From an uncultured Planctomycetaceae bacterium (GTDB lineage Bacteria; Planctomycetota; Planctomycetia; Planctomycetales; Planctomycetaceae): DNA of 64,000 nucleotides. Of the stretch, positions 54,832 to 64,000 are shown in pieces. The stretch spans positions 448,001 through 512,000 of the forward strand of contig CAWFGE010000012.1 of the NCBI GenBank assembly GCA_963815195.1. Reading direction: 5' to 3'. The notes under the pieces were generated by a model. That model made no database searches. It saw only the letters and a program-made list of their open reading frames with translations, and was not told the DNA's origin. Numbering within the stretch: position 1 is the stretch's first letter; each line of letters opens with the position of its first letter. The position numbers and the translations under genes are program-made.

Positions 54832-56254
54832 ATGTCTTCTTGGCGACACTTTTGGAATTGCCTGGGAGTCTGGGCGGGCCTCTTCAGCCTGTGTTCGTTC
54901 GCGCTGGCTCAGCCGCCGATCCGTTTGGACGCGACCGAGCATGCCGAACCCTTGGAGGGACCGGAGTTTGCGGCTCCCCCCGCTTCCAGCAAGTTTTATT
55001 ATGGCGTGATGGGGCAAATCGCCAGGCCCGGCGTTTATGAACTCAACACCGGCCGTCTGCGGTTGATGGATTTGCTCCGCGACGCGGGCGGGCTGACCCG
55101 GCGGGCGACGAACGAAATTCACATTGTTCGCGATGGCAATGTGCTTCCGCCGGTTTTTTTCTCGCCGCGGTTGGATGTTTCCCTTGTTCCGGGGGACATT
55201 GTCGTCGCCGACGGTCCTTTGCCGAACGAGGCGGAGAAAAAGCAGGTGGCGCTCGTCGGTTTACTGAATCGGCCCGTGATTCTGCCCGTGCCCGCGCCGC
55301 ATGCGAATCTTAAAGCCATTGTCGCCTACTTGGGGCAGCCGGCGTCCCTGGCGAATGAAATCCAAGTTGAGCCGGTCGGCGGGGAACGAATCGATTCCGA
55401 AACAAAAGCCAATCGAGGGCCGGCGTTCCTCGTGCCCACGGTGTTGTACGTTAACTCCGCGAGCATACAAGCCGACCAGTTGCCCCCGTTTCCGGAGGTC
55501 TACCGCATCGGCCCAAAGAACGCCGAACGCCTGGCCTCCCCAACCGAGCCGACGCCTCCGCCGGAATTGGCGTTCCCGCCGGAAGATCGGTCCCCGGTCG
55601 CGCAGTTTTCGCCGACCGGCGCATGCCGTGGCCGAGTCATCGTCTGCGTCGGCCGAACCGGCTTCATTTTCCGTCGCTCGAGACGCCGGGCGAAACATCG
55701 AAGTGCCGGGAACTTGGAATCACGCCGACACCATCGCGACGCCCGCCGGCGAAGTCGACAAGCCGGACGAAGCCGAAGACTCTGCGAGCACTTGGCCGTA
55801 TTGGGGCGTCATTCTGGTCGCGGTCTTTTCCGGCGGAATCTATGCCCGGCGGCGCTATTGGAAGCGCTTGCCGCAGCGTCTCGTCGCGGACATTCCGCCG
55901 CTGAATCCTCAACTCCCGCAGAAACCGCAGATCGAATCGCCGGAGGAAACGCCGCCGAAAAGCCTTTCCGCCCCGTTCCCGTTGGACGACGACCTGGCCG
56001 CGCTGGTTTTCAATCGGCTGCCGGTGCGGGATGAATCCGATGCGAAACCCACGCTTCAAAAAACATTCCGGCTCGATTCCCCAGACGAACTCGGCCCCGC
56101 CGGGTTGAGCGGTCCGACGTTTCTCAAACGCCCCGCCGAGCCGCAGGCCAGCCCGGTGCCGGAAACTGTGCCGGCGGATGACCAAGAAAATCGGCCCAAC
56201 CTGGGCGTGCTCGACCGCGTGCTGTTGCGAGTTCATCAATCCCGGGCGGCATAA
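54832..56254 (+). CDS. Single-pass membrane protein with an exported SLBB (beta-grasp) domain and a Pro-rich cytoplasmic tail; apparent +1 frameshift near 55615
   Basis: Signal peptide; SLBB pattern VMGQIARPGVYEL..LMDLLRDAGGLT..LVPGDIVV; TM WPYWGVILVAVFSGGIYA followed by RRR in the second frame. Confidence 0.72.
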
Positions 56255-56287
56255 ACCGGGCGGAGACACTCGAAGAAAGGTCCGCTG

Positions 56288-57283
56288 ATGACGATTGCTT
56301 TGGACGTGGGCAGCCGGCGGTTCCGCTCCCTGTGGCGGAAGGAGACGCACCTGGCGGCCAAAACCTGCCCCGTGGCGTGCTGCTTTCTGCCGGACAAACC
56401 TCCGGTCCGGCATTTGTTGGAACAGTCGGGCGTGCGGTTTCGTGCCGCGCAGGATCAACTCGCGATTTGGGGATCCTCGGCGGAAAAGCTCGCGAATCAA
56501 TGTGCTGTCAAAACCGAGCACCTCCTGGCCCGCAATCCGCTCCGCAAAGACAACCACACCATCCGCGAGCCTTTGCAGGATCTGCTCTCGTCCGTGCTGC
56601 CGCCGGCGAAGACTCCCGGCGAGATTTGCAGCCTCGGTTTGTTGTCCGATGATTTTCACGCCGATTGGCTTCGCGCGGCTTTGGACGAGATGGGCTATCA
56701 AATCGTGACCTGCTCCGCGGGGCTCGCCTTGGTGTTGGCGGAGATGGTCCGCGAGGAGTTCACCGGCCTCGGTTTGGTGTTCGGAGCGAGCCGCTGCGAA
56801 GCGGTGCTCGCGCGGGAAGGAAAAGAGATCGCCCGCTGCGAACTGCCGCGCGGCGGCGACGCCATCGACCAGGCCATCGCCATCGCCGAGGACCGCTACT
56901 GGTGGAGCATGGCCGGCTTCCGCGAATTGGACACCGAAGGCATCACCGAATGGAAAGAATCGCTGACGGCGTCGCTGTTACAACCCGCGAATCTCCGCGG
57001 CGAACGGCTTCTGGCGGGCTATCATCAATTGGCGGCCGAGTTGTGCGGCCTCTGCGAAAGCGCGCTCTCGCGGCACGAGTTTCCGGAGGCGCTCGCCGTC
57101 ATCGCCGGCGGCGGAGCGGTTCGCATTCCGGGGTTCGCGGAACTCCTCGCGGAGCACCTCCGCGAATCCTCGCTGCCCATCGCCCTCGACAAAACCCGCA
57201 TCGCCCCCGCGGAATCCACCATCTCCCGCGGCCTGCTGATCCACGCCGAGCTCCAACACCGCGCCCAAACGCAAGCGGCGTGA
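56288..57283 (+). CDS. Divergent actin-fold ATPase, volactin-like
   Basis: Phosphate-1 IALDVGS; EMGY..GLALVLAE..FTGLGLVFGAS; RGGDAID; adenosine motif IAGGGAVRIPGF; connect-2 ISRGLL. Confidence 0.75.
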   Translation: MTIALDVGSRRFRSLWRKETHLAAKTCPVACCFLPDKPPVRHLLEQSGVRFRAAQDQLAIWGSSAEKLANQCAVKTEHLLARNPLRKDNHTIREPLQDLLSSVLPPAKTPGEICSLGLLSDDFHADWLRAALDEMGYQIVTCSAGLALVLAEMVREEFTGLGLVFGASRCEAVLAREGKEIARCELPRGGDAIDQAIAIAEDRYWWSMAGFRELDTEGITEWKESLTASLLQPANLRGERLLAGYHQLAAELCGLCESALSRHEFPEALAVIAGGGAVRIPGFAELLAEHLRESSLPIALDKTRIAPAESTISRGLLIHAELQHRAQTQAA

Positions 57284-57317
57284 GCGGCTGGGCGCTTGCC
57301 GCCGTTCTTTGGTTCGG

Positions 57318-58950
57318 TCAGGCGGGGGTTTTTTCGCTGACGGGTTCTTCGCGACTGGCGTAGAAACAGACCTCGGCGTCGCCGCCGGAGCGGTCGCATT
57401 CGTTGGCGAACTGGATCAAGTGATGCGCCACGACGCCGATGTGGATCACTTCTTCGATCCGGCCGCGCAAAAGCAGGGGCAGCGCGGTTCTCCAGAACAC
57501 CTCGCGGTAGTCTCCCTTCATGCCGATCCTCCAGAACAGCCGGCCGGCAATCCGCAGGCCGCGGACAATGTTGCTGAGATTGATCCGCGCCCGGGTTGCC
57601 GGCAGCGGCTTGCGGTTGGGAAACGTGTTCTCCAGCTGATGGGCAAACCTCCCGTAAACGGCCGCCGGCACGTAGGCGCGGCGGATGCATTCCCGCCAAC
57701 TGCCGATGATCGTCTCGTAGGGCAGCAGAAAGTCCACGTTCGATTGACGGTCCGCCGCGTCCACCAGCCGCCCCGCAGCGTTCAGCCGATCCCACAGCGG
57801 CGTCTTGGGCAGCGCGTGCAGGATGTTGATCGTCAACAGCGGAATCCGCGAGGCCTCGATAAATTGCAGAATCCGGCGGCCGGTTTCGGGTGAGTCGGTA
57901 TCCAACCCGATGATGATCCCGGAGACGACTTCCAGCCCGTAGCTGTTGAGCGTGCGAACCGCCTCCAGGAGCGGCTGCCGGAGGTTCTGCTTCTTCTGCA
58001 TCGCCTTGAGGGCGTCTTCTTCTGGCGTTTCGATGCCGCAGAACACCGTCGTGAACGCGGCTTCGCGCATCAACTCCATAATCTCCGGCGACTGGGCGAG
58101 GTTCAGGGTGGCTTCGCAGGCGAACCGGACGGGAAAGCCTCGCGCCTCCTGCCAGGCGACGAGGGCCTCGAGCAGTTTCCGAGCGGCGTGCTTGTTGCCG
58201 ATGAAGTTGTCATCGACGAAATACACGCTGCCCGGGTTGCCGCGGGCGAGCATGGCATCGAGTTCAGCCGTCACCTGCTCCGGCCGCTTGAGCCGGGGGT
58301 TTCGGCCGTAAAGCGCGGGGATGTCGCAGAACTCGCACTGATAGGGGCAGCCGCTGGAAAATTGCACGCTGGCGAGGAAATAATCTCGCAGGTCGATCAG
58401 GTCATACCGCGGGGCGGGAAACTGCGAGAGAGGCAGCCGATCGGTTGTCTCGAAGAGTTCCTGCGTGTACGGCCGATCGGCGGAGTGTTCGAGGCGGGCG
58501 ATCAAGTCTCGCGTGGCGTCGCCGAGTTCACCCACGTGCAAGAGGTCCACGTCGGGATACCACTCCTGACACGCCGAGACCGACGGCCCGCCGAGAACGG
58601 TGATCTTATCGAAGCGATGCGCCCGGCGGTTGATGTCCTCGATCTGCCTTCGCTGGACGTGCATACCGCTGGTGAAGACCGCATCGGCCCAGCGGAAGTC
58701 GGCGTCGGTGGCGGGGGCGATGTTTTCATCGATGAACCGCACGTCCCATGACGTCCGGCAGCGCGGCCGCGATGAGGAGCAGCCCCTGCGGAGGCATAAA
58801 CGCCCGCACCCCGAGCAGCGGAAAGGCGTAATCGAACGTGCCGAAGGAATGCGTGTAGCGCGGAAACACGCACAGGATTCGCCGATGCCGCGAAGCCGTG
58901 CCGTTTCGGTCGGCCGTCCGTGCCGGCGGCGTTAAAACCTGATCCGTCAT
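57318..58950 (-). CDS. hpnP: B12-binding radical SAM methyltransferase, hopanoid C-2 methylase-like; apparent +1 frameshift near 58755
   Basis: RRILCVFPRY..SFGTF, FMPPQGLL, SGMH.QR, LHVGELGDAT, SGCPYQCEFCDIP.LYGRNPRLK, IPLLTIN, SNVDFLLP and AHHLI match HpnP as recalled. Confidence 0.8.
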
Positions 58951-59016
58951 GATATCTCCGAGTGCTGGTGCGTGGCGGTGCCGTGATTGCCGTCAAGCAG
59001 GCGGCCCCGCCCAACG

Positions 59017-59033
59017 AGCAACTGCTGTACCGA
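59017..59033 (-). promoter_or_regulatory. Candidate sigma54 (-24/-12) promoter of the hpnP-like gene
   Basis: Minus strand TCGGTACAGCAGTTGCT has GG-N10-GC with TTGC, about 65 nt upstream of the ATG at 58950. Confidence 0.4.
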
Positions 59034-59220
59034 ACTGTTCCGTCAAAATGATCTATGGCAATGCTAGCAGTGGGCCACGGATCTCCCTAGAGGGAAATTC
59101 TGCGCGTCCAGGGTGGGAGTTCTCCCGGGCGTCTCCGTCAGGCCGAGTCCGCGGATTTCGCCGGCGATGTCCCTGGATTTTCGCGGCGGCCAAGATGCGC
59201 ACCCGGTCGGTAAGCTGGAG

Positions 59221-59348
59221 TGTGTTTCATAGAAGTATGGACTTGGGTGGCACGCCCTGAGGAACGAAGGGCGTGGTCCCAGGAATCGCCACGCCCTTCG
59301 CTCGGCTCAGCGACGTGCCAGCCGATCCACTGGAAAATAGGGCGAAAG
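59221..59348. repeat. REPIN/MITE-like palindromic element, family A (copy 4)
   Basis: Reverse-complement homologue of 45063-45197. Confidence 0.88.
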
Positions 59349-59485
59349 ATTATCCGCCTGTTTTTGTGAAACACGAATGGCGAACGGAAAAAATCCGCGG
59401 GAGGATTGGCGTTTAACGCATCAAAATGCGATAATGCTTCTAAAACCATCCCGCCACGACATTCCCTCCGACGGAATCCTGCCCC

Positions 59486-60898
59486 ATGTCCGATTCACGC
59501 CGAATTTGCCCCGGACCCGTGTCCCGCCGGTCGTTTTTACAAATGGGCGCGCTGGGATTGGGCGGTTTGGGGCTGAGCGATCTGTTTCGCCTGCGGGCTG
59601 ATGCCGGGAGTTCGACAGCGAGCGATCCCGAGACTTCCGTGATTTTCGTGTGGCTGCCGGGCGGCCCGCCGCACATGGAAATGTACGACATGAAGCCGGA
59701 CGCCCCGCTGGATTACCGCGGGACCTTCAATCCCATCCCCACGAATGTTCCGGGATTGGATGTTTGCGAGCTCATGCCTTTGCACACCCGCTGCGCGGAC
59801 AAATACAACATCATCCGCTCGGTGGCCCACGAGTTCGCGGACCACGGCGGCGGGCACAAGCGGTTTCTCACCGCGCGGAAGCCGAAAGAGCCGACGGGCT
59901 TTGTCAACGATTTCCCGGCCGTCGGTTCCGTGGTCGCGAAGATGCGCGAGCACCGGAACATCGGGCTGCCGAATTATATCTCCGGCACCAACGCGGGCCG
60001 GGCGGGCGTGGACACTTACAGTTTCGGCGCGGCGTATCTCGGGCCGGCGTATGTGCCCTTCAACATCCCCGGCGACCCCAACGAGGCCAAGTTCGAGGTC
60101 AAAAACATCTCGCTGTCGTCGTCGCTTTCGGATCGGCTCGACGACCGCGTGCGGTTGCTTAACGGGTTCGATCGACTCCGGCGGGACATCGACGATTCGG
60201 GCCTGATGAACGCGGCCGACCAGTTCAATCAAAAAGCCGTCAGCCTGCTCACCAGCGACAAAGCCCGCCACGCGTTCGATCTGTCCCAGGAGCCGGATTC
60301 CCTCCGCGACCGCTACGGCCGGCATGCGTGGGGACAGCGAGCCCTGTTGGCCCGGCGGTTGGTGGAAGCCGGCTGCAGTTTCGTCACAATGGTGATGGAG
60401 AACCCTTACCAGTCCGGCGTCTCGTGGCTGAAAAACGGGACCTACAATTGGGACTCGCACGCGGTGAACTGCCATTTGTTCGACGACGCGAAAATCCGCC
60501 TGCCGATCTACGACCGGGCCGTGACGGCGCTCGTGGAAGATCTTCATAGCCGCGGACTAACCAAAAGGGTTCTGCTCATCGTCACCGGCGAGTTCGGCCG
60601 CACGCCCCGCATCAGTCATCAGACCGGAACGCAAACGGGCGTCACACAGCCCGGCCGGGATCACTGGCCGCAAGCGATGAGCATGCTCGTCACCGGCGGC
60701 GGCATGCGGACCGGGCAGGTCATCGGCTCGACCAACTCGAAGGGCGAACATCCGCAAAACCGCCCGCTGACGCCCAACGATTTGTGGGCCACGGTGTATC
60801 GGCATCTGGGCATCAACCCCGAGCATTCCTTCCCCGACCACAGCGGGCGGCCTATGCCGATCTTGCCCTTCGGCCAACCGATCGACGAACTTCTGTAA
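59486..60898 (+). CDS. DUF1501 family protein with Tat signal
   Basis: SRRSFLQMG twin-arginine signal; WLPGGPPHME.YD.KP, LLARRLVEAG, WDSH, GEFGRTP and GRDHW motifs. Confidence 0.92.
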   Translation: MSDSRRICPGPVSRRSFLQMGALGLGGLGLSDLFRLRADAGSSTASDPETSVIFVWLPGGPPHMEMYDMKPDAPLDYRGTFNPIPTNVPGLDVCELMPLHTRCADKYNIIRSVAHEFADHGGGHKRFLTARKPKEPTGFVNDFPAVGSVVAKMREHRNIGLPNYISGTNAGRAGVDTYSFGAAYLGPAYVPFNIPGDPNEAKFEVKNISLSSSLSDRLDDRVRLLNGFDRLRRDIDDSGLMNAADQFNQKAVSLLTSDKARHAFDLSQEPDSLRDRYGRHAWGQRALLARRLVEAGCSFVTMVMENPYQSGVSWLKNGTYNWDSHAVNCHLFDDAKIRLPIYDRAVTALVEDLHSRGLTKRVLLIVTGEFGRTPRISHQTGTQTGVTQPGRDHWPQAMSMLVTGGGMRTGQVIGSTNSKGEHPQNRPLTPNDLWATVYRHLGINPEHSFPDHSGRPMPILPFGQPIDELL

Positions 60899-60902
60899 CA
60901 AT

Positions 60903-60930
60903 GTGAGCGGTACGGCGCTAGCCGCCGGTC
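60903..60930. repeat. Single REP, family C
   Basis: GTGAGCGGTACGGCGCTAGCCGCCGGTC differs by one base from 51823-51850. Confidence 0.75.
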
Positions 60931-60974
60931 GTGATGTAAAACACACTCTTCGCTTCGCCGGTTGCAAATGTGTT

Positions 60975-61835
60975 ATGGAATCCGCCGCTCATCGACTTCG
61001 GCAATTGTTGGCTCGTCCGGGATTATTGCGGAGCCTCGCCGCGCACGATGTGCTCTCGGCATTGGTGATGGAGCAGGCGGGGATCGAGCTTTTGTTTCTG
61101 GGCGGGTTCGGGGTGGCGGCGAGCCGGTTCGGTTGGCCGGACGTGGGTTTAATCACCTTGAGCGAAATGGCCGACGCCGTCCGCCGGATGGCTTCCCGCG
61201 TGCGGATTCCCGTGATGGCCGACGGCGACACGGGGCATGGCGATTTGCAGAACGTCGTCCGCACGGTGCGGGAGTTCGAATCGGCCGGGGCCGCGGGCGT
61301 CTTGTTGGAAGATCAAGTCTCGCCCAAGCGCTGCGGGCATTTTGCGGACAAGAACGTCATTCCCGCGGAAGAAATGATCCGGAAACTGAAGGCCGCGCTG
61401 GACGCCCGCCGGGATCCGGATTTTGTGATCCTGGCCCGCACGGATGCCGCCGCGGTGGAAGGCATCAATGCCGCCATCGACCGGGCCAATCGCTACGGCG
61501 AAACCGGGGCGGACATGTGCTTCGTCGAAGCCCCGCAAACGCTCGAGGACTTGGAGCGGATTCCCCGCGAAGTGCCTTATCCGTTGTTGGCGAACATGCT
61601 CCTCGGCGGCCGCACGCCGATCGTGCCGTTCGAAACCTTGGAAGACTGGGGCTACAAGATCGCGGTCTGCCCGATTGCGAGTCTGCTGCTGACCGCGTTT
61701 CAAATCCGCCGGCTATGCGAAGCGGTCCAAACCCAAGGCCGGGCCGACCAGTTGAGCGGCGAGATGTTCGCTTTTGAGGAACTCAAGCAGCTTTTGGGGT
61801 ACGACGACTGGGCCACATTTCGCGATCAGCTTTAG
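60975..61835 (+). CDS. Isocitrate lyase/PEP mutase superfamily (methylisocitrate lyase-like)
   Basis: PDVG, ADGDTGHG, EDQVSPKRCGH, ARTDA and FVEA motifs. Confidence 0.9.
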   Translation: MESAAHRLRQLLARPGLLRSLAAHDVLSALVMEQAGIELLFLGGFGVAASRFGWPDVGLITLSEMADAVRRMASRVRIPVMADGDTGHGDLQNVVRTVREFESAGAAGVLLEDQVSPKRCGHFADKNVIPAEEMIRKLKAALDARRDPDFVILARTDAAAVEGINAAIDRANRYGETGADMCFVEAPQTLEDLERIPREVPYPLLANMLLGGRTPIVPFETLEDWGYKIAVCPIASLLLTAFQIRRLCEAVQTQGRADQLSGEMFAFEELKQLLGYDDWATFRDQL

Positions 61836-62005
61836 CAAAGTTTGTGGAATGGCGTCTCGCGTTGGAAGGGTTCAGGAGAGGAGTCCAAGGAACGCCATGT
61901 TTTGAAGTTCCTCTTGACGCGTCCCGCGATCATCCGTTAAACAGCCGGTTTCCTTTGAGACAATCTGTCTTGACAATCTGGCCGAAACAGCAGGGAGGCT
62001 GTGGC

Positions 62006-63136
62006 GTGAGACGATGCGCGCTGACCGCCTTGGCGGGATGGTTGCTGCTTTTGCGAGCGGTTTGCGTGCTGGCGGCGGACGAGGGAAATCTCGGCGAGGA
62101 TCGGGTTTTTCTGCCGCCGGCTCCCACGGGGAATGCGCTGCCCGAACCATTGACGGATCTCGGCCCGACAACCGCCGATCCCCCGCCGGCCGTCGAGCCG
62201 ACGCCGCTCACCGTGCCGGATGCGGATCTTGAACCGATCGTGGTGCCTCCGCCGGGCACTTCGAATGAAGACATGACCGCTCCAGTGGAGAATGGGAAGC
62301 CGTCTTCCAATCACCTCACGATTCGCATCGGGCCGAGCACCGTCTCGTTCACGCCGAAGCCGGCGGATTTTGCCACGAGTCGCTGGTGGCCGGGTTCGGG
62401 AACGATGGAATGGATGCCGGGGCACCGCGACCGGTTTGGGATGTTCAGCCTGACCGGCGGGGCGGCGGTGGCATGGGAAAACTGGGGCGGGATTTCCTCG
62501 GGCTTCGGCTACGGGTTCCACTTTCTCAATGGCCCCGTCCAAACCGACCTGCCGTCGCGGCTGTATGATTTGAATTGGGGCCTGAATTGGAACGGCGAAC
62601 TGATGCCGGGCTGGTCCGCGAGCCTGGGCGGCAAGGCCGGGATTTATTCGGACTTTGAAGACAGCGCCCGCGAGGGCTGGCGGTTCCCGGCGCATGCCGT
62701 CGTGTTTCACGATTGGACGGACACCGTCAGCGGGGCGGCGGGCGTCAAATATTTCGCCCGCGACAACCTGCCGCCGCTCCCCGTGGTGGGGTTGATCCTC
62801 CGTCCCGACGACCGCGTCCGCATCGAAGCTTTGTTCCCCGAACCGCAAATCGCCTGGCGGGTGCATGCCGATGACGATTCCGAACATTGGCTGTCGGTCT
62901 CCGGCCAGGTCGGTGGCGGGCAGTGGGCCATCGAACGGGCCAACACCGACCGCGCGGACGTCGTCACCTACAACGACTACCGCGCGGTGCTCGGATTTCA
63001 CAACTACAAACCCGGCGAACATGATGAGGCGTTCGAGGCCGGCTACATCTTCGCCCGCGACCTGACCTACCGCTCCGGCGTCGGCAACTTCCATCCCGGC
63101 GACACGTTCTTCTTCCGCTTCGTCAGCCGGTATTAA
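62006..63136 (+). CDS. Exported protein with Pro-rich linker and a probable outer-membrane beta-barrel C-domain
   Basis: Signal-like N-terminus; aromatic-rich amphipathic strands (DLPSRLYD, GIYSDFE, GGGQWAI); C-terminal Tyr. Confidence 0.65.
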   Translation: MRRCALTALAGWLLLLRAVCVLAADEGNLGEDRVFLPPAPTGNALPEPLTDLGPTTADPPPAVEPTPLTVPDADLEPIVVPPPGTSNEDMTAPVENGKPSSNHLTIRIGPSTVSFTPKPADFATSRWWPGSGTMEWMPGHRDRFGMFSLTGGAAVAWENWGGISSGFGYGFHFLNGPVQTDLPSRLYDLNWGLNWNGELMPGWSASLGGKAGIYSDFEDSAREGWRFPAHAVVFHDWTDTVSGAAGVKYFARDNLPPLPVVGLILRPDDRVRIEALFPEPQIAWRVHADDDSEHWLSVSGQVGGGQWAIERANTDRADVVTYNDYRAVLGFHNYKPGEHDEAFEAGYIFARDLTYRSGVGNFHPGDTFFFRFVSRY

Positions 63137-64000
63137 ACGCCACCGGAAGACTCTCCAGTCCCCGGAGCACCAGCCCTCGACGCCAGCGAAGCGCCTCGGG
63201 AGCGACGGCCAGTTTCCAATCCGCCGTCCCGTCAAGCAAAGTGCGAATCGCAATTTGGCCCTCCAACCGAGCCAAAGCCGCCCCCAGGCAAAAGTGAACA
63301 CCCACTCCGAAGGACACGTGTCGGTTCGGATCGCGGCAAATATCCACCTGACGGGCATTCGAGAATTGCGCTTCGTCCCGGTTGGCCGAGGCAATCGCGG
63401 CGAACACAAGCGAGCCTTGCGGAATGGTCACGCCCGCGATCGGCACATCTTCGCGAGTAAACCGTTCGGTGGCGGTCTCCAAGGGACTTGCAAACCGCAA
63501 GAGTTCCTCGACCGCCGATGCCGTCAGCGACGGGTCGTTTTGGAGTTTTTCCAGTTGCTCGGGATGCTCCAGGAGAGCGAGCATCCCGTTGCCGATGAGA
63601 TTGACGGTCGTTTCATGCCCGGCCACCAGGAGCAGGAAGATCATCGCGACCAGCTCATCTTCGCTCATGCAGTCGCCGGCTTCCTCCGCCTGGACGAGCG
63701 CCGAGATCAGATCGTCTTTCGAGGAACTTCGCCGCGACTTGACCAGCCTCCGGATGTACTTGAGGAATCTCCACACGGCGGGAAGGCCTTTCATCGCATC
63801 CCAGGCGGACCAGTTGAGTGATATGATCCGGCTGGACCAGCGGTGAAACTTGTGCCGATCGGCGGCGGGCACGCCCAGCATCTCGGCAATCACCGTGGTC
63901 GGGAGCGGAAGCGCGAAATCCCCAATGAGATCTTTCTGTTTCTCTTTCGCCATCGAGACGCGGAGTTCCCGGGCGAGCGATTGAATCCTGTCGCGCATCC
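63123..64000 (-). CDS. Cytochrome P450 (3' part; start outside window)
   Basis: LVAGHETT (I-helix), EELLR (ExxR), SANRD and FGVGVHFCLGAALARLE heme-Cys motif. Confidence 0.95.
   Translation of the reverse strand, partial: MRDRIQSLARELRVSMAKEKQKDLIGDFALPLPTTVIAEMLGVPAADRHKFHRWSSRIISLNWSAWDAMKGLPAVWRFLKYIRRLVKSRRSSSKDDLISALVQAEEAGDCMSEDELVAMIFLLLVAGHETTVNLIGNGMLALLEHPEQLEKLQNDPSLTASAVEELLRFASPLETATERFTREDVPIAGVTIPQGSLVFAAIASANRDEAQFSNARQVDICRDPNRHVSFGVGVHFCLGAALARLEGQIAIRTLLDGTADWKLAVAPEALRWRRGLVLRGLESLPVAFNTG

Follow-up and report, generated by a model that had tools for sequence, protein, structure and literature searches.

A probable hopanoid C-2 methylase gene of the HpnP clade in a planctomycete that carries hopanoid genes

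The window analyzed here, a stretch of 64,000 nucleotides from an uncultured planctomycete, lies on a contig of 1.13 Mb and carries on its minus strand an hpnP-type gene that is divided in the assembly between two open reading frames (ORFs). The 5′ piece, a 74-aa ORF at 58726-58950, comprises the first ~65 codons in the true frame and aligns with the N-terminus of both the gene of a sister species (genome G462) and HpnP-type proteins. The 3′ piece, a 474-aa ORF at 57318-58742 (taken as a 479-aa piece at 57318-58757), contains the remainder of the B12-binding domain, the radical SAM core and DUF4070. The frame is shifted by an extra base at 58749-58755 (minus strand), which appears as a one-base gap in the alignment with the sister species: seven bases are present where relatives have six, the 5′ frame ending in ...FMPPQGLLLIAAALP and the 3′ frame restarting at SWDVRFIDEN. 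When joined across the break, with X at the break, the product has 543 aa. The coordinates, the alignment with the sister species and this length of 543 codons bear out the proposal of the sequence-only reading that the two ORFs are one gene split by a single extra base. A ribosome-binding-site-like GGAG (58956-58959, minus strand) stands five nucleotides ahead of the start codon (ATG, 58950), and both elements align with those of G462.

The same reading had recognized a B12-binding radical SAM protein with CPYQCEFC, and this is correct. The motif, a CxxxCxxC [4Fe-4S] signature at 58326-58349 (minus strand), has its three cysteines invariant in 30 aligned proteins. Both Radical_SAM (E 4.5e-20) and the C-terminal DUF4070 (PF13282, E 8.6e-31; 57390-57803, minus strand) are matched above the Pfam cut-offs. 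On the C-part by itself the B12-binding match is weak (E 1.7e-4, below the cut-off), the domain being cut by the frame break; PF02310 is listed for the HpnP-type protein of G462. The domains thus follow the order B12-binding, radical SAM and DUF4070, the first being matched weakly on the truncated piece. The 3′ piece, modeled with AlphaFold (pLDDT 86), has its best fold matches among B12-dependent and related radical SAM enzymes such as MgmA, AprD4, CysS, TokK and OxsB, at 14-20% identity, with no close solved relative in the PDB. NCBIfam is without an HpnP model, and the best matches of the protein there fall far below their cut-offs; the score for HpnR (TIGR04367), 54 bits vs a cut-off of 650, shows that the protein is not a member of that family.

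A candidate sigma54 promoter, which had also been proposed for the gene, did not survive comparison: a sigma54-like string with two mismatches exists at 59062-59077 (minus strand), 111 nt ahead of the start codon, yet is unsupported as a promoter, such matches being at chance level in the window (25 observed vs 26.3 +/- 5.4 in shuffles) and the G462 gene having no counterpart upstream within three mismatches. rpoN is present in the genome, and a sigma70/terminator scan found nothing upstream on the strand of the hpnP-type gene. A palindrome-rich intergenic repeat at ~59220-59360, between hpnP and a DUF1501 gene, has ~120 BLAST matches in the genome and is presumably REP-like. On the other side, the convergent neighbor at 56288-57283 (plus strand) encodes a volactin-family (actin-fold) protein with a full-length match to PF25216 (E 5.7e-44), which served as a host marker and chimera control. 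It has ~20 relatives at 59-85% and is found in all three congeners, in one of which it likewise lies downstream of an SLBB-domain gene; volactin itself we take to be an archaeal actin homolog. The SLBB-domain gene at 54832-56254 (plus strand) is assembled as overlapping ORFs of 400 and 317 aa, which form one gene of 473 codons, as a short-read contig lacks base 55604. No other hpn gene occurs among the nine ORFs scanned in 54832-63998, and shc, hpnH, hpnC and hpnG have their best matches in the genome elsewhere than in the window, which agrees with the description of the gene as standing alone.

The genes for hopanoids, bacterial lipids akin to sterols, lie far from hpnP in a genome of 8.87 Mb (25 contigs, 94.6% complete, 2.8% contaminated). 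shc (664.5 bits vs a cut-off of 431) and hpnH (534 vs 225), which had been named as the genes to look for, both exceed their curated cut-offs, as does hpnC (339 vs 250); an hpnG-like gene scores 144 bits, under its cut-off of 187. shc is split in the assembly, and a short-read contig corrects it to an open frame of 778 codons. Its presence here says little, since shc is found in all seven sampled genomes of the family (50 of 150 in the phylum sample). shc is followed immediately, in the same orientation, by a gene of the fatty-acid-desaturase family (L155:8531-9625, minus strand), which could bear on unsaturated hopanoids. As for B12, metH and one cobalamin riboswitch point to its use; cobQ was not found in this genome and cobS was found neither here nor in any of the three congeners (genomes 85-95% complete). 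The sole cobalamin riboswitch found precedes a gene whose product starts with a pilin-type motif (L166:1500-2753; G000:C13 near 1120158). This gene is presumably DUF1559-like, and may possibly encode a planctomycete component of B12 uptake.

That the host is a planctomycete, as supposed earlier, is upheld by three kinds of relatives. Matches of the convergent neighbor include a sole named organism, a Planctomycetaceae bacterium (65%); among named organisms, Thalassoroseus (70%), Planctomycetaceae MAGs and Maioricimonas come closest in shc; and two proteins from genomes of the same phylum stand in the tree described below at zero distance from entries named Planctomycetes/Planctomycetota. Thalassoroseus and Maioricimonas we take to be genera of Planctomycetaceae, and it is from the relatives of the neighbor gene and of shc that we infer this family for the host. 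There was no sign of the chimerism or mis-binning against which the sequence-only reading had warned. GC is even along the window, the junction between the volactin-family gene and the 3′ end of hpnP is bridged by short-read contigs at 57235-57500 (X1) and 57166-57400 (X2) from two samples of one study, and the separately assembled congener G462 carries an 83% ortholog. The one run found to share half of the words of the window is a soil metagenome of that study and may be the source sample rather than independent support; no RNA run was listed as sharing them. The codon score of the hpnP-type gene is host-like, at the 95th percentile of a comparison set that held spurious ORFs, its GC3 of 0.83 ranks at the 98.5th percentile in a crude set of ORFs, and codon usage, judged against the same imperfect set, gives no pointer to recent transfer. 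A chimera is unlikely.

A search of a large protein collection returned relatives at 60-83% identity, many of which, including those at 62-75%, bear the JGI label “hopanoid C-2 methylase.” Mean identity to the query is 69% for three Armatimonadota-linked proteins, 62% for six other planctomycete and five gammaproteobacterial rows, 61% for three of Methylomirabilota, 59.4% for eight cyanobacterial rows (58-61%), 59.1% for 57 alphaproteobacterial rows (57-62%) and 34.5% for 38 HpnP-like outgroup rows (31-40%), in none of which the strings FMPPQG and CP..CEFCDIP.LYGR occur. Identity to the Rhodopseudomonas rhenobacensis ortholog, a proxy for R. palustris TIE-1 HpnP, is 59%; a working cut-off of ~55% identity to R. 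palustris HpnP, with other B12 radical SAM proteins at <34%, is given in the relevant part of PMC12583986.

The tree (IQ-TREE, LG+G4) was built from 75 rows picked from 244 and represents the validated enzymes by relatives only; its anchors were R. rhenobacensis and two species that also appear in Hoshino's tree, Afipia broomeae ATCC 49717 and Rhodoplanes roseus, and it contains no acidobacterial or myxobacterial sequences. A single clade (100/100, stem 0.8) unites the 65 HpnP-type rows, the query among them, and excludes the 10 HpnP-like rows; this, together with 57-62% identity to HpnP-type proteins vs 31-40% to outgroups, establishes the membership in the HpnP clade that had been suspected. 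Two planctomycete proteins (L095, L096; 39-43%) are the sister group of the entire clade (100/99) and should be useful as close outgroups. The cyanobacterial (100/99) and alphaproteobacterial (90/97) HpnP groups are distinct and the query is outside both; it groups with G462 and three metagenome proteins (100/99) in a wider branch of 32 rows (88/96) with sequences of Armatimonadota, Planctomycetota, Gammaproteobacteria and deltaproteobacterial MAGs. As the order of the main branches within the clade differs between the quick and careful trees, we make no claim that this branch diverged early. When the query's group was constrained to join the remaining planctomycete sequences of its branch, the result was borderline (AU p 0.054); the constraint tied it to nine rows, eight of them planctomycete-labeled or identical to such. 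HpnP-type genes in records labeled Methylophilaceae and Sediminibacterium (L020, L089) nest within cyanobacterial and Afipia sequences, and are likely mis-binned contigs or recent transfers.

The closeness to Cyanobacteria that had been perceived in three motifs proved to be partly real as a matter of strings and mistaken as a matter of affinity. G.PG[SA]VYF occurs in seven of eight cyanobacterial vs 1/57 alphaproteobacterial rows and LHALP in 4/8 vs 0/57, whereas the third motif shows no such preference (1/8 vs 2/57); the first two are also common in the query's own branch (5/6 planctomycete and 2-3/3 Armatimonadota-linked rows). A forced grouping of the query's group with Cyanobacteria was rejected (AU p 8e-5), and the mean identities given above set Cyanobacteria level with Alphaproteobacteria and below the Armatimonadota-linked proteins.

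Within the genus, an HpnP-grade match is found in one of the three other genomes (83%), and this is at the same time the only one among 300 other genomes of the family, the remaining 22 family matches being HpnP-like proteins at 37-41%. In the phylum sample of 400 genomes, four have matches of 56-65%; HpnP-like DUF4070 proteins are widespread there, with matches at E 1e-60 in 82 of 400 other genomes. No HpnP-grade match came from the remaining two congeners, which are more distant (63-68% in the neighbor gene). Synonymous divergence from G462 is equal for the hpnP-type gene (dS 0.66) and the neighbor gene (0.68), which would fit inheritance from the common ancestor with G462. The two loci are not syntenic, as the kinase and ileS genes that flank hpnP in G462 map to other contigs of this genome. 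The simplest reading of this distribution would be a gain by transfer into the sub-lineage of this species and G462, and the horizontal transfer suggested earlier is accordingly likely at the level of the genus, only 1/300 other family genomes having such a match.

We consider it reasonably probable, on comparative grounds, that this HpnP-clade gene of a hopanoid-gene-bearing planctomycete is intact and encodes a C-2 methylase. In this case the product would methylate C-2 of the hopanoids made by the cell. From what is known of class B radical SAM methylases, the [4Fe-4S] cluster would cleave one SAM to yield a 5′-deoxyadenosyl radical, which would abstract a hydrogen from C-2 of ring A; the methyl group would be given by methylcobalamin, and a second SAM would recharge the cobalamin. 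B12 would probably be scavenged rather than made, so that output would hang on B12 from outside. A non-cyanobacterial donor would have passed the gene to an ancestor shared by this species and its sister, and both would since have inherited it, at different chromosomal sites. The HpnP mechanism is described as proposed and not studied in detail in the section of PMC13459092 that deals with it, and PMC13712982 is a commentary.

Does membership in the clade guarantee the C-2 position? An unlikely alternative is that the gene is intact and its branch methylates otherwise, at another position of the hopanoid, on another triterpenoid or on a non-terpenoid substrate. None of 14 query-branch loci of at least 8 kb has shc, hpnH, hpnC or hpnG nearby vs 38/117 other loci, a contrast in which the 38 are mostly related Nitrobacteraceae, the branch is set by a weakly supported FastTree node and kin are not independent. 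Their neighbors are mixed and show no common pathway (49 of 85 neighbor ORFs scanned). In the portions of Hoshino 2023 (PMC10697835) that concern function, Alphaproteobacteria, Cyanobacteria and Acidobacteria are named as the only groups with confirmed 2-methylhopanoid production, and the deepest HpnP homologs are in myxobacteria without squalene cyclase. Among the consulted extracts of the literature on HpnP, no query-branch member shown to make 2-methylhopanoids and no measurement of these in a planctomycete was found. The relevant extract of the Lawrence preprint (bioRxiv 10.1101/2025.07.29.667474) takes grouping with an experimentally verified member as the criterion for a positive-control branch. 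Moreover, two of 11 genomes carrying a query-branch member are without an shc match, both of them MAGs and one 93% complete. Against this, the other nine do have shc, a higher share than in the phylum sample, albeit among kin that are not independent; identity to alphaproteobacterial HpnP, ~59-60%, is at the level seen between groups with known shared function, the acidobacterial enzyme also being at ~60% (PMC5462960, in the portion on this enzyme); and in most carriers hpnP lies apart from the hpn clusters in any case (PMC10697835, PMC12583986). We judge it equally unlikely that, as a whole, the large orphan branch of uncultured Armatimonadota, Planctomycetota and Gammaproteobacteria, unlinked to hopanoid genes in the loci examined, has shifted to another methylation site or substrate. 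If it had, a methylated lipid not yet described would be the product of its hosts, and counts of 2-methylhopanoid sources based on hpnP surveys would be too high.

A second alternative takes the frameshift as real. The gene would then be a recent pseudogene, and both sister species would be losing a gene that is unneeded or without B12 supply. The G462 gene reads through the site of the break at 58749-58755 but has its own one-base frameshift near its 3′ end, so that no unbroken copy is seen in the genus, where the two remaining congeners have no HpnP-grade match at all. Short-read contigs of the same organism (three runs) give no cover over 58716-58916 and thus none over the extra base; nor is the GCGC/CGCG context of six of the seven read-corrected indels present at the break, for which reason this error signature is not counted as support. 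A very recent inactivation would also be invisible to dN/dS. Split genes are, however, frequent in this assembly. In a sample of 210 ORFs from 400 kb of a complete genome of the family, 88 have an orthologue-like match here, and 16 of these (18%) are frameshifted, with 17 junctions in 38,804 residues, so that a gene of 543 codons would be broken at least once with a probability of 21%; the assembly also splits shc, metH and rpoN. At this rate, split genes in this genome are presumed to be errors unless reads show otherwise. Short-read contigs differ from the assembly by seven single-base indels in 26 kb compared, covered in part only, and where these fall in coding sequence, at four sites, the open frame becomes longer each time (433 to 677, 425 to 571, 714 to 778 in shc, and the 473-codon SLBB join). 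The hpnP-type gene has no stop codons or further lesions, and its dN/dS against G462 is 0.15 before the break and 0.17 after it (about 0.16 overall), core-gene-like and close to the 0.14 of the neighbor gene; it is under purifying selection relative to the sister species. The ileS gene adjoining the G462 copy is fragmented too. We therefore hold the break to be very probably an assembly error, and a pseudogene to be rather improbable.

A third possibility, to which we give a low probability, is that the enzyme is a true C-2 methylase in an organism that makes little or no 2-methylhopanoid in nature, owing to B12 shortage or silence of the gene. The missing cobQ and cobS would agree with this, as would two hpnP-bearing species without 2-methylhopanoid product in culture, reported in the part of PMC12583986 that also cites B12-dependent production in Nitrobacter; but metH and the riboswitch point to B12 uptake, and the gene is under purifying selection. 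Lastly, an origin from a cyanobacterium, or a chimeric or mis-binned stretch, is very improbable, for the two shared motifs and the high GC3 are outweighed by the rejected cyanobacterial grouping, the long contig of even GC with its 3′ junction bridged in two samples of one study, the host-like codon score and the ortholog in a separately assembled congener.

With a C-2 methylase as the preferred reading, the new element is modest and amounts to an uncommon occurrence of hpnP in the inferred Planctomycetaceae, with 1/300 other genomes, for which no first-in-family claim is made. The novelty that the sequence-only reading had implied for a planctomycete HpnP was already overtaken in print. The sections of Hoshino 2023 (PMC10697835) on distribution report HpnP in 12 phyla, with three Planctomycetes sequences in the tree and sporadic cases ascribed to horizontal transfer, and the 2026 version of the Lawrence et al. 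preprint (bioRxiv 10.1101/2025.07.29.667474) reports HpnP in planctomycetota. 2-Methylhopanes are read as cyanobacterial or stress markers in ancient rocks, so that each extra source lineage slightly weakens a taxon-specific reading; Planctomycetota being already listed as a source from genomes, the present case changes no conclusion. It adds one more member to a branch that published trees use for rooting, and suggests a producer whose output may depend on scavenged B12.

Among known systems, HpnR (TIGR04367), the hopanoid C-3 methylase, likewise methylates ring A of hopanoids by B12-dependent radical SAM chemistry, but the query does not belong to it. The HpnP-like DUF4070 radical SAM proteins share the three domains of the query but stand outside the HpnP clade at 31-40% identity. 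Closer are the planctomycete homologs QNN24000.1, MBI3268233.1 and MBI3827899.1 shown in Supplementary Fig. 1 of PMC10697835, which share the phylum and protein clade of the query; a group listed in the same source, with an Armatimonadetes, a Desulfobacterales, zrk34 and two Gammaproteobacteria sequences, has the taxon mix of the query's branch, matched by taxon names only. Unlike these homologs, the query has a host placed by inference in Planctomycetaceae, a family with an HpnP-grade match in 1/300 other genomes. The closest comparison is with HpnP itself (R. palustris TIE-1 B3QHD1, the id listed in Hoshino 2023; KEGG K22705 and InterPro IPR034530, as named in the Lawrence preprint). Unlike HpnP of the tested groups, the query belongs to the separate branch of 32 rows, where C-2 activity is predicted only, its host is a planctomycete without detected cobQ or cobS, and its gene is split in the assembly. 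Like HpnP, it combines B12-binding, radical SAM and DUF4070 domains in ~530-545 aa, falls in the same clade, shares 57-62% of its residues with HpnP-type proteins of Alphaproteobacteria and Cyanobacteria, and is carried by a host with shc.
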